Shown: positions 11,207 through 47,860 of the stretch, in pieces | Layout: each line of letters starts with the position of its first letter | Position numbering within the stretch: the stretch's first letter is position 1 | DNA from: an uncultured Anaerolineales bacterium | GTDB taxonomy: Bacteria > Chloroflexota > Anaerolineae > Anaerolineales > UBA11858 | Reading direction: 5' to 3' | Length of the DNA stretch: 64,000 nt | Assembly (NCBI GenBank): GCA_964344175.1 | Contig: CAYFMI010000010.1 | Span: 243 to 64,242 of the forward strand | Notes under the pieces: model-generated | Told to the model about the DNA's origin: nothing | Database searches by the model: none | What the model saw: the letters and a program-made list of their open reading frames with translations, nothing else | Position numbers and translations under genes: made by a program

Positions 11207-11779
11207 TTAGTTCCATAGTTTGCGCACAAAATAGGCCAGAGCATAGGCGCCGCCAAATACGGCAAACATAAAAGCCCAGCTTCCTGTGGAAAGTACCGCG
11301 CCGCCAGAAAGCGCTTGCCCCGAGGTGCAGCCGCGCGCCAGACGGGCGCCAAAGCCCATGAACGCCCCGCCAACAAAGGCCATCAGCCAGCGTTTGCGGT
11401 TTGATATATTCGGTCCTTTACCGGTTTCGGGCTTGATGCGTCCATGTAGCCAGCCGGAGAAGAAACCGCCAAGAAGCACGCCGGTGGTTACAAAGACGAT
11501 CCACGAATCGAGCGGGTTCTTGCTGCCGCCAGCCATCGCCAGGAGATAGGGCGTTAGGTCAACGTGCTTAGGGGCAATCAAATCTTCGAAGAAAACCAGA
11601 AAGCGATTCAGTCCGCCTGAGGCCCCTAGGCCGCTCCCGGTGATGAAGAACGACAGAAATAACACGACACCAAGTACCGCGCCCCCCAGGTATGCGTTGA
11701 CGTGATCTTTCTTTTCGCGTTGAAAAATGAACTTTTTCAACGCCGAGGCTTTCTTGGGTGAATGAGTTGCAGTTGTCAT
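11207..11779 (-). CDS. YeeE/YedE family membrane protein (sulfur-transport domain)
   Basis: The 190-aa polytopic protein has the motif GARLARGCTSGQALSGG typical of the family. It lies directly upstream of the second YeeE-like ORF. Confidence 0.7.
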   Translation of the reverse strand: MTTATHSPKKASALKKFIFQREKKDHVNAYLGGAVLGVVLFLSFFITGSGLGASGGLNRFLVFFEDLIAPKHVDLTPYLLAMAGGSKNPLDSWIVFVTTGVLLGGFFSGWLHGRIKPETGKGPNISNRKRWLMAFVGGAFMGFGARLARGCTSGQALSGGAVLSTGSWAFMFAVFGGAYALAYFVRKLWN

Positions 11780-14538
11780 TCTTGAGATTCCTCCTCGGCT
11801 GGGGCATGTACTTCAACTTCGTCCCAGCCCATCATCATAGCTTTGATGCCGGCCATTGGGGTATGACCGGTCGTTGTCAGGTAAACGTGCATCACAATAA
11901 ACGATGCGAACATCCAGGCGACCAGGGTGTGGAAAGGCCCCAAGAAAGGCAGCCCACCCAAACTTTCCGCGATACTGGGCCAGCGTTGCGCGCCCCAGAT
12001 GAGAATGCCGGTGATTCCTTGCAACGGCAGCAGTACATTCAGGATGCCGAAATAGGTCACTTGTTGGAGTGGGTTGAGTTTTCGGCGGGTCGTTTTCTCA
12101 AAGGGATGTTCCGCTCCTTTGAAGATGCCGTTCAGGTAAAATTTTGTCTGGGTGATGGCTTGGTCGAAGAAACCGCGCGGTCTAGGAATGTATTGTTGGA
12201 TTTCGCCGCTGACCAGGTGGTAGAACAATGACAAGGCTGCGTTTATCGCCAGGATGGCGGCGACGATGTTGTGGACGATGACAACCCCGCGGAAACTAAA
12301 CATGCCGAAAGTGTCCGGTTTGTGGATAATCAACCCGGTGAAGAGCAAAAGTACAATGGCGAAGGTTTGCAGCCAATGCCACAGCCGCTCGTAGACGGTA
12401 TACATGTACACGTTTTCAATGCGCGCCTCATGTGTTGGTTGCCGCATTGAAGAATACACACGTAAGCCGCCGTGGGCTACGATCCCTAGCAGAACGCCCA
12501 TAAACATTAGCGATCCGGCCAGGTCTATCCACCCAAGGTTGTTGTGTCCGAGAATGTATAAGTCATTCTGATCGGTATCGGGCCGATAGAACAATGCGCC
12601 GCTTTCATCGGTGTAGATCTCGCCGTCGAGAATTGTGTTCGTATCATTAACGAATTCAGGCATCACACTGCCGGGCGCGTATGACGATAGTTGAATTGGC
12701 TGAGTAATGCGGGATTGTGCACCATGGCAGGCGGCGCAATCTTTCAGCGCCCCATCGCCGCCGACAACATTGTGATTGATGCTGTAGGGTTGCACTTCGC
12801 CTACAATGCGGGGATTCCCCAACCCGATGCGTGTCAGACGGTCTTTGATGAACTGTTCTTTCTCCGATGTATCTATGAGTAGTTCACTTTCATCAAGACT
12901 TCCATCCTGGTTTCCATCGAAGCGCAGCAGTACACCGGGGAGATAATCGCCATTTTCTACATATGCCGCTTGCAAGTCATCCATTCGTACAGGGCGAGGA
13001 GGGTCGCCATAGACCCAGAACCAGGTGGTGATCAAGTTGTGGGGGGCCAGACTGTTGCCACCATCGACATCGGTGCTGGGGAGCAAGACGGGTTCGTACC
13101 CTACCATCAGCGACCGCATGGTATCCTCATCGCCCTCGATGCCGCGACATTCTGTGGCTGCCTGGCCTTCGAGGGTTATCACTGTCCAGTCGTGCTGCAT
13201 ATTCGATGATGAGTACATTTGCGGTATGTGGCAACTTTCGCAGCTAATTGCGGTCATATGGCGGTCTTTGTAAGGCAGCCATTCGTGTGTGTTTTCTACG
13301 CTATGGCAGGAGGCGCACCGCCGCATGGTGTCTTTTAATTCTGGGGCCACCGTGCCCTGGGCGCTATTGCCGCGGGCAAATTGATGGAGCGGCTTTTCAA
13401 GGTAGTCACCAATTTCCAGCCGACGGGGATCGAAGAGCAAGTGTTCGGGCAGTGTACTTTCAGACTCGCGGAAGTAGAGCGGGTTGTTAAGCGAATAGTG
13501 GCAATCGGTGCAGTTTAGCAGGCGTTCTGCGTGCACATCCCAGGGGCGGTTGAGCGTTTCTTTGTTTGCCAGGTTCATGCCCGAATCGGCTAGTTTTTGC
13601 GGTGAGATGATTTGCCCGGTTGTGATGGTGCTCCAGCGTTCGGCAGAGCAGCCCAGCATGACGAGAGGATCTTCTACGTTGTCATGCACCAGACCGTGGC
13701 ACAAGCCGCAATTATCGTTGGTGGGATCTTGAATGATGGGGAGTTCCGCCGAGAGTTCGCCCTCGGTGTTGAAGGCTGCCGCGTTCCAGGTGTAGGTGTC
13801 GCCGCTTTGTTCAACGATGCCGGTTCCCACCAGGGTGGCGGTATTGGCCCAGCCGAAGTTGCCGCGTTGAATCGCTTCTACGCGGGTTTCGTTGTTGGGG
13901 GAGGGAATATGGCAAAGGAAGCAATTCATCTCGATAACGCCGGATGCGCGCCAATCCCAGCCGACCATTTCGCCGGTGTCCTCATCGATGGTAGCTGTCT
14001 CTGGGTTGGTTGGATCAACCTCGAGGCTGGTCAGAGGTTCCCCGCTTTGGGCGTAAATGGCAGGTCCGCCACCGACGTGCCGCGTCCCATAGAGTTGAAT
14101 CCACATCGGGGTGGTTAAGTCAATCCGTTCATCTCCCGCCGGTGAGAGATAGCGATAGCCAATCGAATTCCACTTCCCGAAAAATCCGGGGCTGATATCC
14201 CAGGCGCGTTGGCTGGTGGTTGTGCCGGGTTCGGTGATTTCGTGCAGCCCAATGCTGGCATGGAAACTATGCTGTTCGATGAAATCGGCATTGTGGCAGG
14301 CCCCGCAGGTTTGCATGGTGGATACTGCCGCTCCTGAATCGAGAACGTTGACGCCATTCTCGTCGAGGAAGGGGAAGGTGGGGTGGATGGGGGAGAGTTG
14401 TGGGGCGGTGTTGATTGCTCGCTTGGCTTGGGCGAAGTCCCTCGTGACCAAAACTGCCGCGAACAAGAGCATCACTGCCATGCCGATGAAGATGATTCGT
14501 CGAGTTTTTCGTGGACGAAAGGTAGGTTTTGTTGGCAT
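11776..14538 (-). CDS. heptaheme c-type cytochrome fused to a C-terminal diheme-type cytochrome b (FdnI/PhsC/HydC-like) membrane domain
   Basis: The N-terminus is a signal anchor. There are 7 CxxCH motifs (CGACH, CFLCH, CGLCH, CTDCH, CASCH, CESCH, CAACH). The C-terminal TM helices carry YERLWHWLQTFAIVLLLFTGLIIH and further conserved His residues. Confidence 0.75.
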   Translation of the reverse strand: MPTKPTFRPRKTRRIIFIGMAVMLLFAAVLVTRDFAQAKRAINTAPQLSPIHPTFPFLDENGVNVLDSGAAVSTMQTCGACHNADFIEQHSFHASIGLHEITEPGTTTSQRAWDISPGFFGKWNSIGYRYLSPAGDERIDLTTPMWIQLYGTRHVGGGPAIYAQSGEPLTSLEVDPTNPETATIDEDTGEMVGWDWRASGVIEMNCFLCHIPSPNNETRVEAIQRGNFGWANTATLVGTGIVEQSGDTYTWNAAAFNTEGELSAELPIIQDPTNDNCGLCHGLVHDNVEDPLVMLGCSAERWSTITTGQIISPQKLADSGMNLANKETLNRPWDVHAERLLNCTDCHYSLNNPLYFRESESTLPEHLLFDPRRLEIGDYLEKPLHQFARGNSAQGTVAPELKDTMRRCASCHSVENTHEWLPYKDRHMTAISCESCHIPQMYSSSNMQHDWTVITLEGQAATECRGIEGDEDTMRSLMVGYEPVLLPSTDVDGGNSLAPHNLITTWFWVYGDPPRPVRMDDLQAAYVENGDYLPGVLLRFDGNQDGSLDESELLIDTSEKEQFIKDRLTRIGLGNPRIVGEVQPYSINHNVVGGDGALKDCAACHGAQSRITQPIQLSSYAPGSVMPEFVNDTNTILDGEIYTDESGALFYRPDTDQNDLYILGHNNLGWIDLAGSLMFMGVLLGIVAHGGLRVYSSMRQPTHEARIENVYMYTVYERLWHWLQTFAIVLLLFTGLIIHKPDTFGMFSFRGVVIVHNIVAAILAINAALSLFYHLVSGEIQQYIPRPRGFFDQAITQTKFYLNGIFKGAEHPFEKTTRRKLNPLQQVTYFGILNVLLPLQGITGILIWGAQRWPSIAESLGGLPFLGPFHTLVAWMFASFIVMHVYLTTTGHTPMAGIKAMMMGWDEVEVHAPAEEESQE

Positions 14539-14637: not shown

Positions 14638-16086
14638 TCAGGGCTGATAGCTGTTCGAGCGGAAGCGTCCGCCCCAGTCGATGGGGTCGCCATAATAGCC
14701 GAGGGCTTCCCAATCCATGCGGCCGTTTTCGCCGTGACAGTTATCGCAGGTTAATGCGTCGGAGGCCGGGCTGACCATGTGAGTGGTCGGCCAGTACATT
14801 TCAGTTTCGGCAAAATCGTATTGACCGCTGTAATCGAGACCGACGATTTCAGAGCCAAGCGCCAGCGCTTGATCCCAGTCGAAATCATGCCAGAACCCAC
14901 CTTCCCCGTAGGTAACCGGTTGCAGCAGGATGTTGTAGACGGCATCGTAGGGCTGCTTGGCACGATGGACTTTGAAGGGCCAAATTTTTGCCCCCGGGTC
15001 GGTAATATCCCCATTGGGTATATTGATCGGTGTGGAGACGGATGGATCCATCACATCGCCGAAGATATAGCGACCGGCGGTGCCGTTGTACCAGGCAAAT
15101 TCAGGCTGGAAGTTGGAAGTGTATACGAAGCTGCCCTTGATTTTTAAATAATCGTGAACATTTTCTTCGATGTCGTCGCTGCCAGCGGTGGACCAATCCC
15201 AGTACATTTTTGTGGCATCGCGCGTGGCAGCAACCGGGATGTGACAAGTCTGGCAGGCAACGGCCTGAACATGAGCGTTGATGCGGTCATCTTCGTGGAG
15301 GTCTTCATTATGACAGTCGGTACAGTAAATTTGGTTGGTATTGTCCAGGCTGACAGAAATTGAGCGGCCGCTGATGTTGTGGGCTTCGGTTTGGTGGCAG
15401 TCAGTGCACAAGAAATCGTGCTTGCCCATATGAACATCGACGCTTTCGGGAGGAAAGTAGAGGGTTTCATCAAGGTCGCCGTGTTTTACTGCGTTACCGC
15501 CCCCGCCATTGAAATGACAGCCACCACAGTTTTCGCGCGTTGGCATCGCTACGCTTTGGGCGGCGGTCAGCAGGTCAACGCCTTCAGCAGGGTATCCCGC
15601 AGCGCTTTTTACATAGATGCCGGAGTTGTCGTGGCATACCAGACAGTCAATATTCTCTTGATTCGAAAAATCGAAATTGGCATCATCCCATCCATACCCG
15701 GCATGGCAGGATGTGCAACCTGCCCAGTTGCCTTGAATGCCAATGCAGAAGTTGTTGATCGAATTTTTCTTGCCAACGGTTATGGGGCCATCGCGCCCGG
15801 GCAGGGTGTAGGGTTCGCTTTCCCATGTCCAATGGGCTGTTTGCATGACTTCGAACCCGGCATTTTCGTGACATTCCAGACAAGCACGGGTGACATCAGA
15901 CCCGTTTTCGTAGGGGCCTTCGATGATGTCGCTATGGTCGGTGTGCGGAATTCGAAGAGGGACATTCTCCCAGGGCGCATCGTTAGTTTGTTTTTCGCCG
16001 TTGGTAGTGAAAATGACAATAGGGACGATAAGGATTGTCAATGTGATCGTTAATCCTAACAACCAGATAAATTTTAAGTTTTTCAT
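14638..16086 (-). CDS. octaheme c-type cytochrome, tetrathionate reductase (Otr)-like family, copy 1
   Basis: A signal anchor is followed by 8 CxxCH motifs. The N-terminal signature is CLECHENAGFEVMQTAHWTW. It is a paralog of 43171..44718. Confidence 0.65.
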   Translation of the reverse strand: MKNLKFIWLLGLTITLTILIVPIVIFTTNGEKQTNDAPWENVPLRIPHTDHSDIIEGPYENGSDVTRACLECHENAGFEVMQTAHWTWESEPYTLPGRDGPITVGKKNSINNFCIGIQGNWAGCTSCHAGYGWDDANFDFSNQENIDCLVCHDNSGIYVKSAAGYPAEGVDLLTAAQSVAMPTRENCGGCHFNGGGGNAVKHGDLDETLYFPPESVDVHMGKHDFLCTDCHQTEAHNISGRSISVSLDNTNQIYCTDCHNEDLHEDDRINAHVQAVACQTCHIPVAATRDATKMYWDWSTAGSDDIEENVHDYLKIKGSFVYTSNFQPEFAWYNGTAGRYIFGDVMDPSVSTPINIPNGDITDPGAKIWPFKVHRAKQPYDAVYNILLQPVTYGEGGFWHDFDWDQALALGSEIVGLDYSGQYDFAETEMYWPTTHMVSPASDALTCDNCHGENGRMDWEALGYYGDPIDWGGRFRSNSYQP

Positions 16087-16896: not shown

Positions 16897-17808
16897 TTAG
16901 ATCAGGGGATAGGGGTACGGTAAATCCAAAATAAATTCCCAGAAAGCACTTTGAGCAATGGTGGTCGGGCGGTTGGTATTACGCCCAATGTAAATATTGC
17001 GGTGGATATTTAGGCCATCAATTTGGATGGGCACTACCCGCCCATAGCCAAGCTTGCGAACGATGATCTCGGACACAAAGCCAACGCCAAGCCCTTCTTG
17101 CACCGCGAGTGCAATCGCTTCGGAATTCCCTAACGTCATGAGAATGTCGAGGGAATTTGTATTCACATCAATTTCGGATAAGGCGGCGTTAACAACAATA
17201 TAGGTGCCGGAATCGATTTCCCTCATCAGGAAATTTTCTTCGAATAACTCTCCGGGCTGGATGATCCCTCTCTGCGCCCAGGGGTGCTCGTTTGGAACAA
17301 TGAGGCTGATCGTGTCTTCGAGAAATTTATGAAATTCAATATTCTTGCAAGGCACTCCCGTTTCACTGGTCAGGGCAAAATTAACGTGGCCCAGGCTGAG
17401 CATTTCAATAGCTTGCGATTGGGGAGATACCTGGCAGGTGATACGGACTTTTGAATATTCGTGGTGAAATTTCGTCAACAAATGGGGGAGGATATATTTC
17501 CCGGGGGTTGTGCTACACCCAACGATGAGATGCCCAAAAACCTCGCCCTGGAGCGATGCCATTGTTTCCTCGATATGAATCGAGTGTCTGACCATTTCCC
17601 TTGCCAGCGGCACAAGCGTGATGGCCGCGTCGGTTAATTGCAAACTACGTGTAGAGCGGATGAAGAGGGGTACTTGAAAATACCGCTCTAGCGCCTGGAT
17701 ATGCTGGCTGACACTGGGTTGGCTCATTCCTAGTTGTTGAGCCGCCTGCGTGAAATTCAGTGAATCAGCTGCAGCTAAAAAGACATTGAGTTGATGGGCA
17801 TCTAACAT
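16897..17808 (-). CDS. LysR-family transcriptional regulator, copy 1
   Basis: The N-terminal HTH is LNVFLAAADSLNFTQAAQQLGMSQPSVSQHIQALE, followed by a LysR substrate-binding domain. ATG 17808 is preferred over the track start TTG 17835. Confidence 0.8.
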   Translation of the reverse strand: MLDAHQLNVFLAAADSLNFTQAAQQLGMSQPSVSQHIQALERYFQVPLFIRSTRSLQLTDAAITLVPLAREMVRHSIHIEETMASLQGEVFGHLIVGCSTTPGKYILPHLLTKFHHEYSKVRITCQVSPQSQAIEMLSLGHVNFALTSETGVPCKNIEFHKFLEDTISLIVPNEHPWAQRGIIQPGELFEENFLMREIDSGTYIVVNAALSEIDVNTNSLDILMTLGNSEAIALAVQEGLGVGFVSEIIVRKLGYGRVVPIQIDGLNIHRNIYIGRNTNRPTTIAQSAFWEFILDLPYPYPLI

Positions 17809-17854
17809 AATATCGCTCTGTTCAAATGATAACAACCCTTTATATTAGCAAACA

Positions 17855-18001: not shown

Positions 18002-19399
18002 ATGAATAAACTTAGGCCTTTTTATTTTTTTCTAGCAATTCTTGTTATCATTGGAGTGGCCGCTTTTGCAAATATGGGGATAGCCAACGCACTCCCATTA
18101 GAAGACGCCATACCTGTTGAAGAGCCTTCAGATAAAGCTGCTGAAGGGGTGGATGAATGCGTTGTCTGCCATTCTGATAAGGAAAGACTTGTGAGTTCGG
18201 CGAAAGCAGAAGAAGTTTCCGAAAGCGAAAACGAAGGAGAGGGCTGAGGGGGCGAAGTGGCTCCGTTGGAGCCCTGGGAAAAAGTTCTTCTAGATGAGAC
18301 CTTTGCTGAAACAGTTCATGGGAGCATTGCTTGTATGGAATGCCATAGCGGGCAGCAGTCGAGTAACAAAGAAACTGCTCATACCGATTTGATCATCGCT
18401 CCGAGTACGGATCCTGGGAAAGCCTGTGGAACTTGCCATGCTGAGATTGTCGAAGTTTATCCGTCCAGCTTGCATTCATCGCAGCAGGGTTATTGGACCA
18501 TGATCGAAGCGCGCAGCGTGCCTGAAAACCACGTTGCTCTCGAAGAAATGTTCGGCAATCATTGTTCGAGTTGCCATACCGATTGCGGTGATTGCCATGT
18601 CAGTCAGCCGACTTCGGTGGGGGGGGGCTTTATCAATGGTCATATATTCAACGCGACCCCCTCGATGACACGCAACTGCACCGCCTGTCATGGCAGCCGG
18701 GTGGGAAATGAGTACCTGGGCAAACATGAGGATATCAAGGCGGATGTCCACTTTCGTCAAGGGCGCATGAAATGCACCGACTGTCATACGGCAGAAGAAA
18801 TGCACGGTGATTATGCGGCCCTGGGAATGCAAGAGACCCCCGATCACCGTTACTCTGGTGGACAACTTCCTGCCTGTGAGGATTGCCACGATGTAACCCA
18901 ATTTGAGACCCAATATCTGGTGTCCCACAAGGTCCATAGCGCCTTAGCCTGTCAGACCTGCCACTCAGTGTCCTATACCAGTTGTGATGGCTGCCATGTT
19001 CAAGTGAGCGAGGAGTCTGGCAAGCCGTATTTTTCCACAGAAGGGACGTATATGACCTTCTATATTGGCAAGAACCCACTCCAAAGCGCCGAACGCCCCT
19101 ATGAGTATGTCACGCTGAGGCATATTCCTGTTGCTGAAACCAGCTATCAATACTATGGGGAGAATCTGCTCCCCAACTTCGACGCCTTGCCCACCTGGGC
19201 ATACGCCACCCCTCACAATATTCAGCGGGTAACGCCACAAACAGAATCTTGCACAATCTGTCATGACAACCCCGAAATCTTCCTGACAGCCGATAAGGTT
19301 TCTCCCCTGGAGCGGAACGCAAACCAATCTGTGATTGTCGAAGAAATTCCCGAGTTAATTATGGAGAGCTTTGGCGCAACTGAGCCGAGTGATCCTTAA
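18002..19399 (+). CDS. 11-heme c-type cytochrome requiring in-frame UGA (18245-18247) decoding; candidate selenocysteine-containing multiheme cytochrome
   Basis: ORF 18002..18247 (signal peptide plus CVVCH) and ORF 18257..19399 (10 CxxCH, no signal peptide) are in the same frame. They are separated by TGA plus GGG GGC GAA. A hairpin lies 11 nt after the TGA. The alternative model is two genes with the second starting at GTG 18257. Confidence 0.55.
18259..18273 (+). other. candidate bacterial SECIS stem-loop GGCUCC-GUU-GGAGCC
   Basis: A perfect 6-bp stem with a GUU loop begins exactly 11 nt 3' of UGA 18245-18247. Confidence 0.4.
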
Positions 19400-19435
19400 T
19401 TTTGTAGCAATATCAAAATTATTAAGGAGATGATT

Positions 19436-21127
19436 ATGAAAAAGAAGCTACACGTTGTTCTCTCAGTGCTTGTTCTCGCGAGCATGCTGGTAGCAGCAAT
19501 GCCTGTATTTGCGGATTCGCACATGGCAGACCTTGATGCTCCCTATAGCGCAATGTTGGGCAGTATGGTGGGCTATAACACCGTCAAAGCCGATGGTTTG
19601 CTGGTTGAGATGGCCGAAGATGAGCCGCCTTTCTTGCTCGATGTTCGTACCACCCCTGAGCTGGAAGAGAACGGCCACATCGAAGGGGCTGTGCATATCC
19701 CCTTGGCTGAATTGGCCCAAAATCTCGATTTGTTGCCTGCCTTCGATACCCCCATTGTGACCTATTGTGGCAGTGGCTGGCGTGCCACCATTGCAATGAC
19801 ATCGCTCTACGCGCTGGGGTGGGCCGATGTGCGTGCGCTCAAGACCACATTCGCTGATTGGGTAGGAGCGGGTAATCCGGTTGCTGAAGGTGTTCCCGAA
19901 GTTGTTGCTTTGAATGCAGCCGAGCCCGATGTTGAAGCAGTTGCGCTTGTGGACGCTGCCCTGGCGGCTTATGGCGTTGCTCCCTACGGTGTCATTGATG
20001 CCGAAGGTCTCAATACTGCTTTGGTAGAAGACCCCGAAATGGTTATTATCGACGTGCGCACCCCCGGGGAATGGACAGGTAAGGGTGTGATTGACACCGG
20101 TGATGTTGAACTGATCAACCTGCCTTTACAGCGATTTGTTGCCCAGAAAACTCTATGGCCTGTCGATAAAGACACCCACATTGTTGTCTACTGCGGTAGT
20201 GGGCACCGTTCCACAATGGCGATGGCTATTTTGTGGACCTATGGATATACCAATGTCTCCAGCCTGAAAGGTGGATTTGGTGGTTGGACAGAAGCAGAAT
20301 ATGCTGCTGTTGAGTATGCTGCGCCAGATTTTGCCACGCCTTATGCAGATATGCTAGCCAATATGGCTGGTTACAATACGGTTAAGGCGGATGGTTTACT
20401 GGTCGAGATGGCTGAAGATCAACCGCCCTTCTTGCTTGATGTGCGCACTACCCCTGAGCTGGAAGAAAACGGCCATATCGAAGGGGCGGTGCATATTCCC
20501 CTGGCTGAACTGGCTGCGAACCTGGATCTGTTGCCCGCTTTTGATACCCCCATCGTAGCTTACTGCGGCAGCGGCTGGCGTGCCACCATTGCCATGACCG
20601 CGTTGCATGGTATGGGTTGGACTGATGTGCGTGCCCTCAAAACAACCTTTGCTGATTGGGTGGCGGCTGAGAACCCAGTTGTCGAGGGTGTTCCTGAAGC
20701 CGTAGCCCTGGATGTTGCCGAAGTGGATCCCAAGGTGGCCGTTTTCAAAGATGCTACTCTGGGCGCTTTTGGTGTCAAGCCTTATGGTGTTCTCACTGCA
20801 GATGTGCTGAACACGGAGTTGGTCGAAGATCCTGAGATCATTGTGATTGACGTTCGACGCACAGATGAATTGGAAGAGAATGGCGTCATTGATGTTGGTG
20901 AAGCGACTCTAGTTCACATTCCGTTGGAAGAGTTCATCACTCAGTTGGAGAGCTGGCCTGCAGAGAAGGATGCCCATATTGATGTCTACTGCGGCAGCGG
21001 ACACCGCTCTACAATGGCAATGGAGATGTTATGGGCCTTTGGGTACACGAATGTCTCTAGTTTGAAGGGTGGCTTTGGCGGATGGGTAGAAGCTGGATAC
21101 CCGGTTGCTGAATACGTTGCTCCCTAA
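19436..21127 (+). CDS. exported protein with four rhodanese domains (thiosulfate/persulfide sulfurtransferase-like)
   Basis: The signal peptide is LVAAMPVFA/DS. The four active-site loops are YCGSGWRATIAM (two copies) and YCGSGHRSTMAM (two copies). An AAGGAG RBS lies 6 nt before ATG 19436. Confidence 0.8.
   Translation: MKKKLHVVLSVLVLASMLVAAMPVFADSHMADLDAPYSAMLGSMVGYNTVKADGLLVEMAEDEPPFLLDVRTTPELEENGHIEGAVHIPLAELAQNLDLLPAFDTPIVTYCGSGWRATIAMTSLYALGWADVRALKTTFADWVGAGNPVAEGVPEVVALNAAEPDVEAVALVDAALAAYGVAPYGVIDAEGLNTALVEDPEMVIIDVRTPGEWTGKGVIDTGDVELINLPLQRFVAQKTLWPVDKDTHIVVYCGSGHRSTMAMAILWTYGYTNVSSLKGGFGGWTEAEYAAVEYAAPDFATPYADMLANMAGYNTVKADGLLVEMAEDQPPFLLDVRTTPELEENGHIEGAVHIPLAELAANLDLLPAFDTPIVAYCGSGWRATIAMTALHGMGWTDVRALKTTFADWVAAENPVVEGVPEAVALDVAEVDPKVAVFKDATLGAFGVKPYGVLTADVLNTELVEDPEIIVIDVRRTDELEENGVIDVGEATLVHIPLEEFITQLESWPAEKDAHIDVYCGSGHRSTMAMEMLWAFGYTNVSSLKGGFGGWVEAGYPVAEYVAP
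19535..21127 (+). repeat. tandem intragenic duplication (about 798-bp unit, two copies) of a two-rhodanese module
   Basis: Unit A begins at 19535 and unit B at 20333. Long stretches are near-identical at the DNA level, for example GATGGTTT.CTGGT.GAGATGGC.GAAGAT... Confidence 0.8.
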
Positions 21128-27341: not shown

Positions 27342-28274
27342 ATGAAAAAAACTGTTCTATTTCGATGGATAGTTGCCGTATTATTTGCGGTTCCTTTTGT
27401 GTTTGTAGCCGTTGCTGGTGTGCAAGCAAGCACACTTCTCGATGAAACTCCGGTTGATCCGGGTTGTCAAGAATGCCATCCGGCTATTCATGGTGCCTGG
27501 AAAAATAGTCACCACGGTCAGGCGATGACAGATCCAAATTTTGCTGCTGCCTGGGAAGAACAAGGCCAACCCAACGAATGTCTTCCCTGCCACACAACCG
27601 GGTATGATCCCATAACGCGAACTTGGGAGTCAGATGGCATTACCTGTGAAGCATGCCATGCCCCTATGCCGTCCAACCACCCAGATCAGCCGATGCCAAC
27701 TGATCGATCGGCCAGCCTGTGTGGAGGCTGCCACCAAGAAACAGTCTTGGAATGGAAAGTCAGCCACCACCATCAAGCGGAACTAACCTGTGTGGATTGC
27801 CACGGGCAACACTCAACTTCCCTGAAGGGGCAGGATGCCCAAGCGCTGTGCTCAAGCTGCCATCAAGAGCGTGTTTTAGATTACACCCACTCAGCGCACA
27901 GTATGGAAGGTCTCTTGTGTGCCGATTGTCACCTGGGTTCTACCGGTGAAGTCGCTGGTGAAGGGCATGCCTTGAAAGATCACAGCTTCCATGTGAATCT
28001 ATCAACCTGCACGGATTGCCACGCCGATGAAATGCACGACCCCGTAGGAGCAGTAGCTTCGGTTTCCAATGATGATAATAGCTCATCAGGGCCGAAGCTA
28101 GATGCCATGGCTGCAGTTACCGATTTGGGTGTGAGCGCGGTGCCCGATCCGATCAGCCCGATATACTATGCATTGATTGCAGGGTTGATTGGCATGGCAT
28201 TTGGTTTGTTGGTTGCTCCCTGGGTAGAGCGCTGGTATCGCAGCCTCGATCAGCGCACCCGTGTAGATGAATAG
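27342..28274 (+). CDS. octaheme c-type cytochrome with signal peptide and C-terminal TM anchor
   Basis: The 8 CxxCH motifs are CQECH, CLPCH, CEACH, CGGCH, CVDCH, CSSCH, CADCH and CTDCH. The C-terminal helix is IYYALIAGLIGMAFGLLVAPW. Confidence 0.8.
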   Translation: MKKTVLFRWIVAVLFAVPFVFVAVAGVQASTLLDETPVDPGCQECHPAIHGAWKNSHHGQAMTDPNFAAAWEEQGQPNECLPCHTTGYDPITRTWESDGITCEACHAPMPSNHPDQPMPTDRSASLCGGCHQETVLEWKVSHHHQAELTCVDCHGQHSTSLKGQDAQALCSSCHQERVLDYTHSAHSMEGLLCADCHLGSTGEVAGEGHALKDHSFHVNLSTCTDCHADEMHDPVGAVASVSNDDNSSSGPKLDAMAAVTDLGVSAVPDPISPIYYALIAGLIGMAFGLLVAPWVERWYRSLDQRTRVDE

Positions 28275-28292
28275 GGGAGAGCGAGGTGCATT

Positions 28293-29066
28293 ATGACAAA
28301 GAAAAATGAGAGCTTGAATCGACGTGACTTCATCAAAATTATGGTGGGCGGCGGTGCTACCGTTGCCAGCCTGAAAGCTGCTAAATCCGTTTCGGCTTCA
28401 CATCCCGACGGCAGCAGCCCGCATCGTTGGGCTATGGTGATCGACCAGGGCAAATGCGAAGGTTGTGGTTTTTGCACCCTGGCTTGCCAGGCGCACAATG
28501 ATATCGCACCAGATATTTCTTGGAACCGGGTGATTGAGTCGTCTGAAGTCGATGGCAAAAAATGTTACCTTGCCCGCCCTTGTATGCAGTGTGAACATGC
28601 CCCATGTGTGGATGTGTGTCCGGTGGGCGCCAGTTATTATCGGGCGGATGGGATTGTAATGATGGATTACGACCTTTGTATTGGTTGCCGCTATTGTGAG
28701 GTGGCCTGCCCCTATAATGCCCGATCCTTCAATTGGCAAGCCTTCACTGGTGAAAACCCGGCGGTTCCAGATTGGGGTGAACCCGAAGTGGAGCGTCGTC
28801 CGCGCGGTGTCGTAGAAAAATGCTCATTTTGCTATCACCGCATTGACCGCGGCCTGGCCCTGGGGCTGACCCCCGGTGTGGATCCAGATGCCACCCCAGC
28901 CTGTGTTGTCGCTTGCCCTGTTGGGGCCAGAGTGTTTGGTGATCTCAATGATCCAGACTCTGAGGTGAGTCAAATTGTGAAGAACCGCGTCACCCATCGT
29001 CTGCGTGAAGATCTTGGAACCGGGCCGCGGGTGTACTACATTTGCCCCGAGAGCCAGGAGGCATGA
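28293..29066 (+). CDS. Tat-exported 4Fe-4S ferredoxin-type subunit (NrfC/PsrB/DsrO/HmcB-like)
   Basis: The Tat motif is NRRDFIK. There are four Cys clusters: CEGCGFC..C, CMQCEHAPC..C, CIGCRYC..C and CSFC...CVVAC. Confidence 0.8.
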   Translation: MTKKNESLNRRDFIKIMVGGGATVASLKAAKSVSASHPDGSSPHRWAMVIDQGKCEGCGFCTLACQAHNDIAPDISWNRVIESSEVDGKKCYLARPCMQCEHAPCVDVCPVGASYYRADGIVMMDYDLCIGCRYCEVACPYNARSFNWQAFTGENPAVPDWGEPEVERRPRGVVEKCSFCYHRIDRGLALGLTPGVDPDATPACVVACPVGARVFGDLNDPDSEVSQIVKNRVTHRLREDLGTGPRVYYICPESQEA

Positions 29067-29067
29067 T

Positions 29068-30321
29068 ATGAATATCAAACGCTTGCTTCGCAACCTAACT
29101 AAATTCCACTACTGGCTGGTCGGGCTGACGATAGTAATGGTGGCCGGGGTGATCGGCGCTCTGATTGTCTTTGTAAAGGGGTTAGTCGTCACCAACTTGA
29201 CCGACCTGGTTCCCTGGGGCCTATGGATCACAATTGACCTGTCCTCGATTGCCTTGAGCGCAGGGGCATTTACCTTGTGTGCAGCGGTCTATCTGATTGG
29301 CCTGAAAGAGTATCAACCGGTAGCGAAGACAGCCACTTTTATTGGCATTATCGGCTATAGCATGGCCATGCTGTGCTTGCTGCTAGATATTGGCCGTCCC
29401 GACCGCTTCTGGCATGCCTTTGTGTTTTGGAACGTACACTCAGTGCTGTGGGAAGTGACCATGTGCGTTGGGTTGTACTTCACCGTGCTGACCTTAGAAA
29501 CCCTGCCGATCATTGGCGAAGCCGAGTGGTTCCGCTCGCGTTGGCCGAAACCAGCCAAGTGGATGACGAAGATTCACCATTATGCGCCTTATCTGGCGAT
29601 TGCTGGTTTGTGTCTTTCGATGCTGCATCAATCATCGTTGGGCGCTACCTATGGTGTGTTGAAAGCACGCCCGCTGTGGTATTCCCCCAGCTTGTCGGTG
29701 CTGTTCATGTATTCGGCTATTGTCGGCGGTATTTCGTTGACTATTCTAAGTTCGATGATTGCGGCCCGCCTGAGTGATAAAGCGAATGTGATCGATTCAC
29801 TTTTAGAGAAGTTAGCGCATTTCGTTGGTTGGGCCTTGGTGGGCTATCTTTATTTCCGATTTTGGTATGCCTTCTCGATGACCTATACCTATGAGCCTGG
29901 ACGCACCGAGGGGTTGAGACTGCTCACGAAGGGGCCGCTGGCTTTCAACTTCTGGCTGGGTGAGATCATTCTAGGGGCGGTTGTTCCCATTGTGATCTTA
30001 CTTAAGAAAGATTGGCGGGCGCGCCCCTGGTTGCGCATGGTGGCTTTAGGGCTTGTCGTGGGTGGCTTAGTTGCCTATCGTTGGGATACGAACCTTTCAG
30101 GGCAATTGGTGATCTTAACCTACCTCCACAACGAAATCAGCACTTTATATACCAGCTATGTGCCCTCGTTGATTGAAATTGTTGTTGGGGGAGGGGTTGT
30201 AGCCTTTGGGTTGATGGCGTTCACTTTGGGGGTGCAATTCCTCAAGGTAGTAGACCACTCTTCGGAAGAAGAACCCGCGCTGGGGTCAGCAGTGGAGGCT
30301 ATCCCTCTTTCCGGAGATTAG
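29068..30321 (+). CDS. NrfD/PsrC/DsrP-family polytopic quinone-interacting membrane subunit
   Basis: The product has about 10 TM helices. ATG 29068 follows an AGGAGG RBS and the upstream TGA at 29064. Its position after an NrfC-like gene fits the family. Confidence 0.7.
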   Translation: MNIKRLLRNLTKFHYWLVGLTIVMVAGVIGALIVFVKGLVVTNLTDLVPWGLWITIDLSSIALSAGAFTLCAAVYLIGLKEYQPVAKTATFIGIIGYSMAMLCLLLDIGRPDRFWHAFVFWNVHSVLWEVTMCVGLYFTVLTLETLPIIGEAEWFRSRWPKPAKWMTKIHHYAPYLAIAGLCLSMLHQSSLGATYGVLKARPLWYSPSLSVLFMYSAIVGGISLTILSSMIAARLSDKANVIDSLLEKLAHFVGWALVGYLYFRFWYAFSMTYTYEPGRTEGLRLLTKGPLAFNFWLGEIILGAVVPIVILLKKDWRARPWLRMVALGLVVGGLVAYRWDTNLSGQLVILTYLHNEISTLYTSYVPSLIEIVVGGGVVAFGLMAFTLGVQFLKVVDHSSEEEPALGSAVEAIPLSGD

Positions 30322-42521: not shown

Positions 42522-42552
42522 AGAAGTTTCTCCTGTATGTGTAAGAATGTAG

Positions 42553-42936
42553 TTATGCAGATAATTCTTGTTGGACGGTATCGGCAAGTTCGCTTTGATC
42601 GTGCAAGCGGCTTGCCAGCACAGCCCGGAGTAGATCTAATGCTTCGATGATGCGCGGGTCGGAAAGCGAATAATAAACCGATTGGCCATCGCGATTTGCG
42701 TTGACCATTTGGCGTTCTCGCAGAACTTTCAAGTGCCTCGAAACCGTAGGCTGGGGGAGTTCGATTGTCTCTGCGAGCTCACTGACATTGTGGGGGCGAT
42801 CATGCAATGTATAAAGGATCAGTATGCGAGTGGAATCTGCCAACCCGCTACAGATTTGAGCGTGTAATTTATTGATCTCTGCCCGGAGTTCTTTCATGGT
42901 GGGGTCACTTTTCCCAATGGTTGATTCTATAAACAT
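42553..42936 (-). CDS. ArsR/SmtB-family transcriptional regulator, copy 2
   Basis: The HTH is LADSTRILILYTL...VSELAETIELPQPTVSRHLKVLRERQMV. There is a single Cys at the same position as in copy 1. ATG 42897 is an alternative start. Confidence 0.8.
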   Translation of the reverse strand: MFIESTIGKSDPTMKELRAEINKLHAQICSGLADSTRILILYTLHDRPHNVSELAETIELPQPTVSRHLKVLRERQMVNANRDGQSVYYSLSDPRIIEALDLLRAVLASRLHDQSELADTVQQELSA

Positions 42937-44718: not shown

Positions 44719-45040
44719 TCTTAACACTCTCCTAAATGTTGTGGACGTGCGTTCTGCCTTCCTGGTTGCATTTTGTGGGGGGGTTCGCGTGATGAGGCGC
44801 GACCCACATTGGTGCAGTTCATCACAATACATTTTGTGACAAACTACGTTGGAATTCTCACCGATGCTATCTATAATATGTAGTAACGATTGTCATGTGC
44901 ATTTATTAGCACGGCTTATGTTAATGTATGATGAATTTCTTATACCCATTTGCTGTAAATGTTAGGGCTTACGCAATTCGATAGAGGTATCCCTACTTGC
45001 GGGCAAAAACATTGTTAGCAAATGCTTGAAAGGCGCATAT

Positions 45041-45961
45041 ATGCTAAATATAGATGATTTGGTAGTTTTCGTCGAAGCTGCTGAATGCAATAACTTCAGC
45101 ATGACCGGGAGAAAATTACACCTTACCCAACCTGCTGTCAGTCAGAAGATTAGTAACTTGGAAGATCGCTTTGGTGTCAAACTATTCATCCGTCAGGGAC
45201 GTTCGATGTCGCTAACGGAAGCTGGGCAGGTTTTAGAACCGATGGCAAGAGAATTGATCGGGCTATCGCGCCGCCTTGATGAAACAATGGTTTCGCTGCA
45301 GGGTGAGGTGATTGGCGAAATGACGGTGGGGTGTTCGACAGCATCTGGAAAATATTTGTTACCAGGGTTAATTGCATTATTCCGCAAGCGATATCCCTTG
45401 GTGAGAATCAACGTCGAAGTCTCGAGCCGCGACAGCGTTTTTCGAAAAATATCCGCGGGAGATGTTGCTTTGGGCGTCTCAAGTAAGAAAGTTGAGCACC
45501 GTGATCTGGAGTACCGCAAATTGTTTACGGATGACGTCATCCTCATTGTCCCCGCAGGCCACCCCTGGGCCGACTTTCCGCATGTCTATCCCGATGATAT
45601 TCTCGATCAGCCGATCATTTTGCGGGAATCAGTCGCGGGGACGCGAGAAGTTTTTATGGCTGCCTTGCGAGAGCATGATTTGTTCCCCGAAATGCTCAAT
45701 GTCGTGATGGAGCTTGGCAACGCTGAAGCGATTGAGATGGCCGTAGAAGAAGGCATCGGAATTGCTTTTATTTCTCGTGCCGCTGCACAACGCGGCTTAG
45801 AATTAGGAAAAATTGCTGAGGTACATGTCGAGGGTATGCAGTTGCAACGAGATATTTATATGGTGCGAAATACAACCATTCAACCCACGCGTACCCAACT
45901 GTATTTCTGGGAATATATAGAGGCATCCGAAGTGCAGCAAAGACTTGCGCAAGTCGCCTGA
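45041..45961 (+). CDS. LysR-family transcriptional regulator, copy 2
   Basis: The HTH is LVVFVEAAECNNFSMTGRKLHLTQPAVSQKISNLE. It is divergent from Otr copy 2 and a paralog of 16897..17808. Confidence 0.8.
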   Translation: MLNIDDLVVFVEAAECNNFSMTGRKLHLTQPAVSQKISNLEDRFGVKLFIRQGRSMSLTEAGQVLEPMARELIGLSRRLDETMVSLQGEVIGEMTVGCSTASGKYLLPGLIALFRKRYPLVRINVEVSSRDSVFRKISAGDVALGVSSKKVEHRDLEYRKLFTDDVILIVPAGHPWADFPHVYPDDILDQPIILRESVAGTREVFMAALREHDLFPEMLNVVMELGNAEAIEMAVEEGIGIAFISRAAAQRGLELGKIAEVHVEGMQLQRDIYMVRNTTIQPTRTQLYFWEYIEASEVQQRLAQVA

Positions 45962-46504: not shown

Positions 46505-47860
46505 ATGGAAGAACTCAGAAATTTACCCGCTGTAGATAAACTACTTATATCCCCTCAGGCTGAGGCATGGCTCGCCGAATATGGCCGCCCGCTGTTATTG
46601 GAGGCTGTGCGGGAATCCCTTGAGGATGCACGCCAAAATGTACTCGGCGGGGGGATAGCCCCTGCGTTGGATGATATCCTGGCTGTGATATCAAATAAAC
46701 TACATTCCTGGGTAAAGCCGACTTTGCAACCGGTGATTAACGCTTCGGGGGTGATGTTGCACACCAACCTGGGACGCGCCCCGCTCAGCACGGCAGCCAT
46801 GCAAGCCGCACAACAAATGGCGCTGGGATATTCGAATTTAGAGTATGATCTCGCCCGCGGCAGACGCGGCTCGCGTCTACTTCATGCCGAGGAGTTGCTC
46901 ACCCGCCTAACAGGCGCTGAAGCAGCGCTTGTGGTCAACAACAATGCTGCCGCAGTGTTGTTGTCGCTGTCGGCGCTGGCAAATCGCCGTCGAGTGGTGA
47001 TTGCCCGCTCGCAGCTCGTGGAAATTGGGGGTGGGTTTCGTGTCCCTGATGTGATGAAACAGTCCGGGGCAAAATTGGTCGAAATCGGGGCTACTAACCG
47101 TGTCCACCTGCGCGATTATCAGCAGGTTATCGCCGACCAGCCCATCAAACTGGTCATGCGTGCCCATCGCTCAAATTTCGCTATTGTTGGGTTTACCACC
47201 GAGCCAGAATTGGAAGCGATTGTCACAGTTGCCCATGCTGCCGATATCCCGGTGCTTGATGATCTCGGTTCGGGGACTTTCATTGATACGGCTGCCTATG
47301 GCCTGACCCATGAGCCGACCATTCAGGAATCTTTGCACGCAGGGGTCGATCTGGTGTGTTTCTCGGGAGATAAACTCCTGGGCGGCCCGCAAGCGGGCAT
47401 TATCATTGGGCGGGAAGATTTGTTAGCAAAGCTTAAAAAACATCCCCTGGCGCGCGCTGTGCGTGCCGATAAGCTGGCCCTGGCAGCGCTTTCGGCGACG
47501 CTGCTTCATTACTTGAAGGATGAAGCTGAAGATGAGATTCCCATCTGGCGGATGATTTCTGCATCCCCAGCTGGGATGCAGGAACGTGCTCAGGGGTGGG
47601 CTGCCAGCCTCGGGCAGGGTGAGGTGCTCCCCGGCTTCTCCACCGTCGGCGGTGGTAGTCTCCCCGGTGAATCCCTGCCAACTCATCTGCTGGTACTCGG
47701 TCATCCCCATCCCAATCAATTGATGAAACGCCTGCGCGCCGCGCAGATCCCGGTGATTGGCCGCATTCAGGAGGGGAAAGCGGTTTTCGATCCGCGCACA
47801 GTTTTGCCTGAACAAGAAAAAACATTGCTGGAAATTCTGCAATCCAATCTCAATACCTGA
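46505..47860 (+). CDS. selA: L-seryl-tRNA(Sec) selenium transferase
   Basis: The 451-aa product has the family pattern LRNLPAVDKLL, VINASGVMLHTNLGRAPLS, NLEYDLARGRRGSR, VEIGGGFR and FSGDKLLGGPQAG (PLP Lys). Confidence 0.85.
   Translation: MEELRNLPAVDKLLISPQAEAWLAEYGRPLLLEAVRESLEDARQNVLGGGIAPALDDILAVISNKLHSWVKPTLQPVINASGVMLHTNLGRAPLSTAAMQAAQQMALGYSNLEYDLARGRRGSRLLHAEELLTRLTGAEAALVVNNNAAAVLLSLSALANRRRVVIARSQLVEIGGGFRVPDVMKQSGAKLVEIGATNRVHLRDYQQVIADQPIKLVMRAHRSNFAIVGFTTEPELEAIVTVAHAADIPVLDDLGSGTFIDTAAYGLTHEPTIQESLHAGVDLVCFSGDKLLGGPQAGIIIGREDLLAKLKKHPLARAVRADKLALAALSATLLHYLKDEAEDEIPIWRMISASPAGMQERAQGWAASLGQGEVLPGFSTVGGGSLPGESLPTHLLVLGHPHPNQLMKRLRAAQIPVIGRIQEGKAVFDPRTVLPEQEKTLLEILQSNLNT

Follow-up and report, generated by a model that had tools for sequence, protein, structure and literature searches.

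A predicted selenocysteine-containing 11-heme cytochrome, encoded beside an exported tetra-rhodanese, in Anaerolineales and other Chloroflexota

To our knowledge, the only multiheme selenoenzyme that has been characterised is MccSep (2026). This protein is ExtKL (GSU2937-2936) of Geobacter sulfurreducens, a periplasmic enzyme that reduces polysulfide and also selenite, and the rhodanese ExtH is encoded nearby (PMC13510729, PMC5877670). Among the octaheme cytochromes of the tetrathionate-reductase family (OTR, TIGR04315), some members have likewise been listed as selenoproteins (PMC13188914). Here we describe a locus in a 64,000-nucleotide stretch of DNA from an uncultured Anaerolineales bacterium (hereafter, the window), in which positions 18002-19399 very probably form one gene whose UGA codon 82 encodes selenocysteine. 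We found no paper on this Chloroflexota selenocytochrome family in open-access text.

The locus resembles that of MccSep in several respects. It encodes an exported multiheme c-type cytochrome in which an in-frame UGA would be decoded as selenocysteine through a SECIS-like hairpin located just downstream, it has long been annotated as two genes, its relatives include both Sec-type and Cys-type proteins, and its cluster, rich in other multiheme cytochromes, includes an exported rhodanese-like protein close by and a candidate quinol-linked module. The differences are nevertheless considerable. The window family carries 11-13 hemes compared to five in MccSep; in MccSep the selenocysteine (U325) is part of a C-terminal Ig-like domain, where it lies in a D-G-U-P loop, whereas here it would be residue 82, in the sequence G-U-G-G, between heme 1 and heme 2; and the heme next to the Sec of MccSep is His/Cys-ligated by a strictly conserved cysteine, while the window family has no conserved ligand cysteine. 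Furthermore, the rhodanese partner of the window family comprises four domains and is encoded right next to the cytochrome or fused to it, and the window family occurs in Chloroflexota, which the text of the MccSep survey does not mention. The NF040886 model for MccSep/ExtKL did not match the window protein at E<=0.01 or at E<=10, and the MccSep structures 9WT8 and 9WT9 (of the series 9WT8-9WTC), which are present in the PDB sequence set, were unmatched by phmmer at E<=10 and by the family profile at E<=1. On these grounds, together with the heme number and the Sec position, membership of the MccSep/ExtKL family was rejected. The earlier note had named ExtKL as a precedent for the arrangement; the precedent is real (PMC5877670, PMC13510729), but in the absence of similarity to NF040886 or 9WT8 it stands as a functional analogy only, and the window family would have evolved separately from that of MccSep. 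The OTR cytochromes are comparable as multiheme cytochromes that act on sulfur or nitrogen oxyanions and have Sec-containing members, but the window selenocytochrome gave no match to TIGR04315 and membership of that family was also rejected, as was membership of the GSU2204-family CXXCH selenoproteins (NF041027), to which there was no match in the NCBIfam scans.

The frame of the gene is broken solely by the TGA. Upstream lies an ORF at 18002..18247 that starts with ATG and encodes 81 amino acids, and downstream, in the same frame, an ORF at 18257..19399 that starts with GTG and encodes 380 amino acids; the two are separated by the TGA at 18245-18247 and the three sense codons GGG GGC GAA. A signal-like N-terminus (MNKLRPFYFFLAILVIIGVAAFANMGIANA) and a single CVVCH are found in the upstream part, whereas the downstream part begins VAPLEPWEK and has 10 CxxCH motifs but no signal peptide, giving a total of 11 CxxCH for the cytochrome. 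All of this agrees with what the earlier note had described. The features of the gene, each on the forward strand, are:

18002..19399, + strand: predicted single selenoprotein gene, encoding an exported 11-heme c-type cytochrome of 465 codons with Sec at codon 82
18002..18091, + strand: putative signal peptide or membrane anchor at the N-terminus, residues 1-30, with likely cleavage after ANA, as read from the sequence
18158..18172, + strand: heme-1 binding motif CVVCH, residues 53-57, the sole heme site upstream of Sec (sequence and ortholog comparison)
18245..18247, + strand: UGA codon 82, probably read as selenocysteine, in the motif G-U-G-G
18259..18273, + strand: putative SECIS element with a 6-bp stem GGCUCC/GGAGCC and a GUU triloop, within codons Val86-Ala-Pro-Leu-Glu-Pro91 (folding, bSECIS criteria, codon invariance and pairing)

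In the joined reading, the tryptic peptide across the Sec would be AEEVSESENEGEG-U-GGEVAPLEPWEK. The TGA codon is an ordinary stop elsewhere in the window, as had been noted from a few genes: it terminates 15 of the 42 annotated genes (among them the genes that end at 6829, 26463 and 29066), and the read-through frames beyond these stops soon meet further stops. Global reassignment of UGA was rejected on this basis.

We compared the gene with its orthologs in 78 species-level Chloroflexota genomes, whose proteins are only 52-76% identical. The in-frame TGA was found at the identical codon in 77 of the 78, a recurrence that places the arrangement far beyond chance. The peptide is kept on both sides of the UGA, as CxxCH-x24-27-G-U-GG-x-V-APLEPWEK, and exactly one CxxC[HQ] motif precedes the Sec in 78/78 orthologs, at a fixed distance of 29-31 residues, within proteins of 11-13 hemes each. 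The N-termini of the orthologs examined are of the signal or the lipoprotein type. A lipobox-like L-x-x-C is present in at least 44 of the 78, and most orthologs thus appear to carry a lipoprotein-type signal in place of the signal or anchor of the window protein. Relatives of the 11-heme cytochrome are encoded by at least 581 species-level Chloroflexota genomes. The gene is also present in cultured strains, such as Thermanaerothrix solaris 4228-RoL (locus L039), and the records NZ_JAUHMF010000001 and NZ_OZ244997 are examples of genomes with the TGA form.

The hairpin GGCUCC-GUU-GGAGCC starts exactly 11 nt after the UGA, which equals the spacing reported for the minimal fdhF element. When folded in isolation it has an energy of -9.1 kcal/mol (z = -4.0, with 0/200 shuffles as good), and its MFE with context is -11.3 kcal/mol. 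The MFE of the wider 75-nt region was unexceptional (z = -0.59) and the folding energy alone is therefore not convincing, so that the convincing support for a SECIS comes from the isolated hairpin and the comparative data. Published bSECIS criteria require a loop of 3-9 nt, a stem of 4-16 bp, a G in the first two loop positions, a UGA-to-loop distance of 16-37 nt and an MFE <= -7.5 kcal/mol (PMC13188914). The window hairpin, with its 3-nt GUU loop, 6-bp stem, UGA-to-loop distance of 17 nt and energy of -9.1 kcal/mol, falls within all of these limits, which bears out the position and the G- and U-containing loop to which the earlier note had drawn attention. No match was obtained when the window was searched against Rfam at gathering thresholds, but no bacterial SECIS family was seen among the results and this null is therefore uninformative.

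Codons 86-90 are each represented by one single codon in 77-78 of the 78 species, while in a control set of 124 other columns of the gene that are >=95% invariant and degenerate, the mean top-codon fraction was 0.57 and none reached 0.95. All 438 of the 438 stem cells (100%) pair across the orthologs, compared to 33-58% in slid controls. The stem variants comprise one compensatory CG and two GU pairs and, given how little the element varies, covariation is limited to the three genomes that carry them; the compensatory change, a swap from G-C to C-G in L073, alters Ala87 to Pro and Pro91 to Ala. The sole relaxed stem codon belongs to the single genome with TGG in place of TGA. The codon invariance and the compensatory or GU changes show that there is selection on the hairpin at the RNA level. 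Like the bacterial SECIS of the E. coli fdhF type, the element is a stem-loop inside the coding region with a 6-bp upper stem and a loop beginning G-U. It differs in being only 15 nt long with a 3-nt loop, without a bulged U or a conserved lower stem, and in being essentially sequence-invariant over a whole bacterial class.

The gene neighbourhood bears on the possible function of the protein. The features of the window that are relevant here are:

14638-16086 and 43171-44832, - strand: two OTR-family octaheme cytochromes (TIGR04315, 569 and 566 bits), both uninterrupted ORFs
16897..17835, - strand: LysR-family regulator, divergently transcribed, with a homolog in 68/83 loci
19430..21127, + strand: partner gene, whose exported product has four rhodanese domains that all contain the active-site loop CGSG[WH]R[AS]T (domain matches and gene neighbourhood)
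27342..30321, + strand: multiheme cytochrome, 4Fe-4S protein (DsrO/QrcC-like) and NrfD/QrcD-like membrane subunit (profile matches)
45026..45961, + strand: LysR regulator just upstream of selA, similar to those called 'selenium metabolism-associated' (NF040786, 233.4 bits, slightly below its cut-off of 250)
46505..47860, + strand: selA, L-seryl-tRNA(Sec) selenium transferase (TIGR00474, 541.7 bits vs cut-off 267.9)

The signal-bearing four-rhodanese protein is, as the earlier note had it, encoded by the next gene, and in 74 of 75 loci the gene that directly follows the cytochrome, in the same orientation, is a rhodanese gene. Natural cytochrome-rhodanese fusions were found in one of the loci (L076) and in P0181 and P0144. 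The divergent LysR-family regulator likely controls the selenocytochrome operon. In about 27-31 of 83 loci, homologs of the cytochrome/FeS/NrfD genes are found no more than 4 kb from the selenocytochrome gene, and the copy at 27342..30321 is a candidate for a quinol-linked electron input module. With its two OTR octaheme cytochromes, SQR, DsrE2-like, YeeE/YedE and PhsC-like cytochrome b genes, the window is a sulfur-metabolism island.

Taking this neighbourhood together with the analogy to MccSep and ExtH, the protein may act outside the cytoplasm to reduce sulfane sulfur or polysulfide (or selenite), an assignment for which we judge the case to be evenly balanced. The mechanism that we propose begins with a well-supported recoding step, in which SelB, carrying Sec-tRNA(Sec), would bind the hairpin 11 nt past UGA-82 so that selenocysteine is inserted instead of termination taking place. 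The 465-residue product would be exported via its N-terminal signal and gain 11 covalently bound hemes, with the Sec placed in a flexible, glycine-rich G-U-G-G loop that links a one-heme N-terminal module to a ten-heme body. The exported and presumably co-transcribed tetra-rhodanese could then bind sulfane sulfur (polysulfide, sulfur derived from thiosulfate, or a selenium analogue) in the form of a cysteine persulfide. Attack on this persulfide by the Sec would give a Se-S intermediate, from which electrons of the heme chain would release sulfide. The ultimate source of these electrons would be the quinone pool, and the cytochrome/FeS/NrfD module nearby may be the route that they take. In Wolinella succinogenes, Sud is a periplasmic polysulfide-sulfur transferase and Psr is the polysulfide reductase, and the proposal is similar in that an exported rhodanese-type carrier hands sulfane sulfur to a respiratory reductase, although Psr is a molybdopterin enzyme and not a heme selenoprotein.

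A true selenocytochrome could also serve another role, such as the oxidation of sulfur compounds (TsdA-like, with Sec or Cys as an axial ligand), the reduction of selenite or tellurite, or extracellular electron transfer to metals, and we regard this as possible though on the whole doubtful. PF22113 (MtrC/MtrF domain II/IV) matched residues 54-148 of the downstream part only, at a marginal 32.0 bits (gathering score 30), and the best NCBIfam matches were ExtM and ExtN, cytochromes of selenite/tellurite operons, at scores far below cut-off; the reduction of selenite by MccSep points in the same direction. Two AlphaFold models, one of the Cys-type homolog P0014 with a shallow N-terminal alignment (pLDDT 68.7, falling below 50 in the Sec loop) and one with a deeper alignment (pLDDT 84.7), yielded no significant Foldseek match in the PDB, MtrC-type structures included. 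We know of no redox motif that corresponds to the G-U-G-G context. The family alignment contains no invariant cysteine outside the CxxCH motifs and, since there is no conserved cysteine ligand, the Sec itself might ligate heme iron, for which we know of no precedent in a natural protein. On the other hand, about 12 conserved non-motif histidines are present, which would be enough for bis-His ligation of all 11 hemes, and the near-obligate coupling to a rhodanese, with occasional fusion, favours the handling of sulfane sulfur or selenium over metal reduction.

The nature of the residue inserted at the UGA can be judged from the selenium genes and from the non-Sec relatives. Programmed read-through or recoding that does not use Sec, for example with the hairpin stimulating near-cognate insertion of Trp, Cys or Gly, or with a stop at the UGA and a fresh start at the GTG, would agree with two observations. 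One is that searches of the 64-kb window, of the 10 kb of contig that follow it and of 80 related loci yielded no selB, selC (tRNA-Sec) or selD, and the other is the Trp (TGG) found at the site in one clade. However, selA is indeed in the window, as had been reported, and its presence implies that the genome makes Sec-tRNA; we know of no other role for this gene. The hairpin moreover fits the SelB-type bSECIS geometry, including the G-U loop. The pairing of Sec and Cys at one site is a classical selenoprotein signature, and the alignment of homologs called for in the earlier note shows it here, alongside the conserved TGA: the UGA column holds Cys (TGT/TGC) in the close full-length homologs P0014, P0047 and P0092. 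Among 30 full-length relatives at a greater distance, 12 also have Cys there, for the most part as C-G-G; a second count, made beside the three close homologs, gives nine such distant relatives with C-G-G or related motifs. The one genome of the 78 with Trp, L060, lacks not only the Sec but also the rhodanese neighbour, and its relaxed hairpin and lost partner suggest that the original function was lost. Read-through without Sec is thus very unlikely. The VAPLEP peptide is not conserved in the distant Cys-type relatives, which fits with the RNA freezing this peptide only in the Sec clade. The hairpin is intact in two Cys-type genes, so that nucleotide conservation is not strictly tied to the UGA; most simply, these would be fossil SECIS elements remaining after a recent change from Sec to Cys.

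It is even less likely that the locus consists of two separate genes, encoding an exported monoheme protein of 81 amino acids and a decaheme protein of 380 amino acids that starts at GTG 18257. Gene callers have split the locus in this way, and all of the public records examined show the 81-aa ORF as an orphan, followed by a "hypothetical" decaheme protein that has no signal and that some of the records label a sulfurtransferase. A GAGGGGG sequence resembling a Shine-Dalgarno site also precedes the GTG, which the earlier note had raised as a possible start. This GTG, however, is the Val-86 codon frozen by the conserved hairpin and not a free start, and the 9-nt spacer between TGA and GTG, invariant in frame and length, evolves as coding sequence: in the ortholog alignment its codon positions 1-2 are invariant and position 3 is free, and the 3-periodic substitution pattern runs on across the UGA codon. 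In none of the 78 species does the downstream part have a signal, without which a separate product could not be exported or receive heme, and the Cys-type homologs are continuous ORFs, so that the pattern of two genes with a signal on the second was not encountered. A pseudogene, nonsense mutation or assembly error, as the metagenomic source of the contig and the single mutation that separates TGA from TGT, TGC or TGG might suggest, can practically be dismissed, given that 77 independent species-level genomes share the TGA, that identical contigs from other samples and a cultured isolate have it as well, and that the sequence on either side of it is under purifying selection. The single 465-codon product with UGA-82 as Sec, put forward as a candidate in the earlier note, is instead strongly supported by the conservation of the TGA, the Cys homologs, the synonymous invariance and compensatory change of the hairpin, and selA.

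Taken as a whole, the locus may represent a new, class-wide selenoprotein family: an 11-13-heme cytochrome that carries its Sec on a glycine-rich arm and is coupled to a tetra-rhodanese, either as a pair or as one fused protein, independent of MccSep, respiring or oxidising sulfur or selenium, and with the Sec possibly acting as a heme ligand. We put this fuller description forward tentatively, as one that falls just short of probable. The invariant 15-nt SECIS would be a compact natural element and a possible search pattern and model for SelB recognition in Chloroflexota. Since the public records split the gene, hundreds of Anaerolineae genomes would misreport a major redox protein. If the description is correct, it would add a second, unrelated family that combines heme, selenium and rhodanese, pointing to convergent chemistry for sulfane sulfur. 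Anaerolineae, which are abundant in sediments and anaerobic digesters, are usually regarded as fermenters; they would gain an extracytoplasmic enzyme that respires (or oxidises) sulfur or selenium, suggesting an unrecognised sulfur or selenium respiration in this group.

Rereading of the sequence bore out the arrangement described in an earlier note for the 465-codon gene at 18002-19399, namely two same-frame ORFs split by a TGA and nine bases, a decaheme part without a signal peptide, a hairpin 11 nt after the UGA, an exported four-rhodanese protein encoded by the next gene, and selA within the window:

18002-18247, + strand: upstream ORF, 81 aa, signal-like N-terminus, one CVVCH
18245-18247, + strand: in-frame TGA, nine bases after which the same frame resumes
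GTG 18257 to 19399, + strand: downstream part, 380 aa, ten CxxCH, start VAPLEPWEK, without a signal
18259-18273, + strand: hairpin GGCUCC-GUU-GGAGCC, beginning 11 nt past the UGA
19430-21127, + strand: signal-bearing tetra-rhodanese gene, four domains, each with the loop CGSG[WH]R[AS]T
46505-47860: selA

TGA is also an ordinary stop elsewhere in the window, as had been claimed, terminating 15 of the 42 annotated genes, in whose read-through frames other stops are soon met.

A protein search with the fused window sequence, in which U was replaced by C, returned 2031 relatives. Most of these start at M/V-APLEPWEK and are thus split at the same spot as the window gene; a few others are full-length and show Cys in place of the window TGA (...GEG-C-GGEVAPLEPWEK). 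Genomic DNA of the relatives was taken from species-representative genomes, which yielded 581 stretches coding for one. The 80 best-scoring stretches are all from Chloroflexota, mostly Anaerolineae MAGs; among the carriers are the cultured Thermanaerothrix solaris and MAGs placed in Anaerolinea thermophila, Bellilinea, Ca. Villigracilis, Ca. Leptofilum and Ardenticatenaceae. When homologs were aligned at the TGA position, a check set beforehand, TGA stood five codons ahead of APLEPWEK at 77 of the 78 readable junctions (77 of the best 80 loci plus the window itself; the exception, locus L060, has TGG), with no frame shift in any of the 78 sequences, and some continuous full-length relatives carried Cys. 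The upstream peptide is conserved, with one CxxCH constantly 29-31 residues ahead of the TGA, and in the nine spacer bases codon positions 1 and 2 are invariant and position 3 is free, which is the mark of translated sequence. In no ortholog does the downstream part bear a signal peptide, and full-length reconstructions carry an N-terminal signal, usually of the lipoprotein type. The conserved TGA, the constant frame, the upstream peptide, the coding-type spacer and the signal pattern exclude, for practical purposes, the two-gene model with a start at GTG 18257 that had still been considered possible, and, to the same degree, a pseudogene or an assembly error. A single product, an exported cytochrome with 11 hemes, is strongly supported.

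For bacterial SECIS elements, a 2026 review of prokaryotic selenoproteomes sets as consensus a loop of 3-9 nt on a stem of 4-16 bp, a G within the first two loop positions, a UGA-to-loop distance of 16-37 nt and an MFE <= -7.5 kcal/mol (PMC13188914). The window element, with a 3-nt GUU loop, a 6-bp stem, 17 nt spacing and an MFE of -9.1 kcal/mol alone (z = -4.0) or -11.3 kcal/mol within UGA+40 nt, falls within all four constraints, in agreement with its proposal as a SECIS candidate. The comparative data are the stronger evidence. Among selenocytochrome proteins that are merely 52-76% identical, the codons are GTG for Val86 (77/78), GCT for Ala87 (77/77), CCG for Pro88 (78/78), TTG for Leu89 (78/78) and GAG for Glu90 (78/78); in 124 control columns elsewhere, each with degenerate codons and a residue invariant to at least 95%, the commonest codon averages 0.57 and reaches 0.95 in none. 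All 438 of 438 stem cells are in standard pairs, a share that falls to 33-58% on sliding the 3' arm. Stem covariation amounts to three variant genomes in all; locus L073 keeps a pair through G15-to-C and C27-to-G at the price of Ala to Pro and Pro to Ala, and a G-U wobble occurs in L059 and L066. Among three Cys-type genes, the loop G is lost in one and the hairpin is intact in two, which may be read as fossil SECIS elements after a recent Sec-to-Cys conversion. The VAPLEP peptide is not conserved in distant Cys-type relatives, which fits the possibility that the RNA freezes it in the Sec clade only. Decoding of UGA-82 as Sec through this minimal SECIS is strongly supported. No selB, selC or selD gene turned up in the window, the next 10 kb of the contig or 80 related loci.

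When the Cys-type homolog P0047 was used as query in an exhaustive search, 572 cluster representatives were obtained at E<=0.001. Cys lies in the aligned column in 12 of 30 full-length non-Sec relatives, mostly as G-C-G-G or S-C-G-G and in three cases with C-C, and the remainder have assorted residues there. A chalcogen residue in a glycine-rich loop is thus ancient within the superfamily, and this speaks for its having a function. A small Trp clade was also noted, comprising L060 (JBARSJ010000040.1, TGG at 4160) and proteins P0037 and P0040. L060 has the sole relaxed stem codon (GTA, at the closing pair of the hairpin) and is the sole locus with ample downstream DNA that lacks a rhodanese gene after the cytochrome, and the heme-1 motif of P0037 is CLICQ; together, these features suggest decay or a change of function after Sec loss.

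As to the hemes, Sec might alternatively serve as a ligand; about 12 conserved histidines outside the motifs are available to the 11 hemes and no additional Cys is invariant, so that a heme with a missing ligand does not seem evident from the alignment. The window protein and its closest relatives, those of L003-L007, lack, in the region of window residues 268-283, a CxxCH insertion (CxxCHxGPE...) found in most orthologs, which accounts for 11 hemes here versus 12 in 42 orthologs and 13 in 23. Some relatives have a C-terminal extension with two more CxxCH. A Cys-type homolog gave a good AlphaFold model (pLDDT 84.7, pTM 0.78), which none of the solved structures released by April 2026 matched significantly.

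The closest known system is MccSep/ExtKL with its rhodanese ExtH, but the selenocytochrome, judged by sequence, is not a member. The precedent invoked in the earlier note thus holds as a multiheme selenoenzyme analogue but not as family membership: the NCBIfam ExtKL/MccSep model NF040886 gave no match even at E<=10, and neither the protein nor a profile of its own family retrieved MccSep chains 9WT8 and 9WT9, both present in the PDB sequence set. The two are set apart by sequence, heme number (five in MccSep, 11 in the window protein) and the position and context of Sec, with no conserved ligand Cys in the selenocytochrome. The OTR (TIGR04315) and GSU2204 families were rejected, as neither model was matched. 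Text searches of the prokaryotic selenoprotein table in the 2026 review (PMC13188914) yielded just three entries of cytochrome or CXXCH type, namely ExtKL, the GSU2204 family and an OTR subtype; the present family lacks a model in NCBIfam release 20.0, Chloroflexota go unmentioned in the text of the MccSep survey, and no description was found in open-access full text. Publicly, relatives are named "hypothetical protein" or, mistakenly, "sulfurtransferase". P0010, P0017, P0043, P0075 and others, truncated decaheme proteins with cytochrome domains only, bear the JGI name 'thiosulfate/3-mercaptopyruvate sulfurtransferase', probably transferred from cytochrome-rhodanese fusions. Within the limits of an open-access search, the selenocytochrome represents an undescribed selenoprotein family of a generally known kind.

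The tetra-rhodanese gene lies downstream of the cytochrome in 74 of 75 loci, in most on the same strand and 14-500 nt away. In L076 (CAVPJC010000001.1, 3926-7342), the TGA-bearing cytochrome and four rhodanese domains are fused in one 1138-residue ORF, and further fusions occur in two distant relatives, with the rhodanese at the C-terminus in P0181 and a rhodanese fragment at the N-terminus in P0144. Of 83 loci, 68 have a divergent LysR regulator, and about one third have a cytochrome/FeS/NrfD module close by. The window is a sulfur island, with genes for SQR, a DsrE2-like protein, YeeE/YedE-type transporters and an ArsR/BigR-like regulator; its neighbouring features include:

9956-11188, minus strand: YeeE/YedE (PF04143)-rhodanese membrane protein, in-frame TGA at 10865-10867
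11776-14538, minus strand: multiheme cytochrome with C-terminal cytochrome b fusion, 920 residues, PhsC-like (143 bits, below the cut-off of 204)
14638-16086 and 43171-44832, both minus strand: two OTR-family octaheme paralogs (TIGR04315, 569 and 566 bits), ORFs uninterrupted
16897-17835: divergent LysR of the cytochrome operon
41289-42587, minus strand: SQR-type ORF, NCBIfam 'type III sulfide:quinone reductase, selenoprotein subtype' (655 bits, above the cut-off of 525)
45026-45961: LysR regulator beside selA, 'selenium metabolism-associated LysR' (233 bits, below the cut-off of 250)

The architecture of the 920-residue fusion is unusual, its b part resembling the thiosulfate reductase PhsC subunit. 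Some OTR-family members are selenoproteins; neither window ORF is interrupted. The SQR-type ORF has no internal TGA and a TAA stop, and presumably represents the Cys type in a family that takes its name from the Sec forms. In the YeeE/YedE-rhodanese protein (...GIGFIVGGY-U-PGTSLVG...), the best 120 homologs (64-75% identical, 395-428 aa, mostly 411-413, with 96-100% of the query aligned) have Cys exactly at the TGA position in 120 of 120 cases (GG[FY]-C-PGTSLV). A hairpin, GGUCG-GUG-CGGCC (about 10838-10850, -6.0 kcal/mol), follows this TGA, and its G-U-N triloop begins 19 nt after the UGA, a design shared with the cytochrome SECIS; the gene may be a second, rare Sec variant or carry a nonsense mutation.

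The periplasmic selenoenzyme MccSep, with five hemes, reduces polysulfide and, to a lesser degree, selenite (PMC13510729, PMC5877670). Alternatively to a sulfur reductase, the present cytochrome might oxidise its substrate, or selenite might be the substrate. The near-obligate coupling or fusion to rhodanese, the sulfur-rich neighbourhood and the MccSep precedent point to sulfane-sulfur reduction with the rhodanese, a function to which we would give about an even chance. The rhodanese would deliver sulfane sulfur to Sec, which, carried by a flexible G-U-G-G arm that joins the monoheme module to the decaheme body, would be the attacking nucleophile, and the heme chain would feed in electrons for the reductive release of sulfide.
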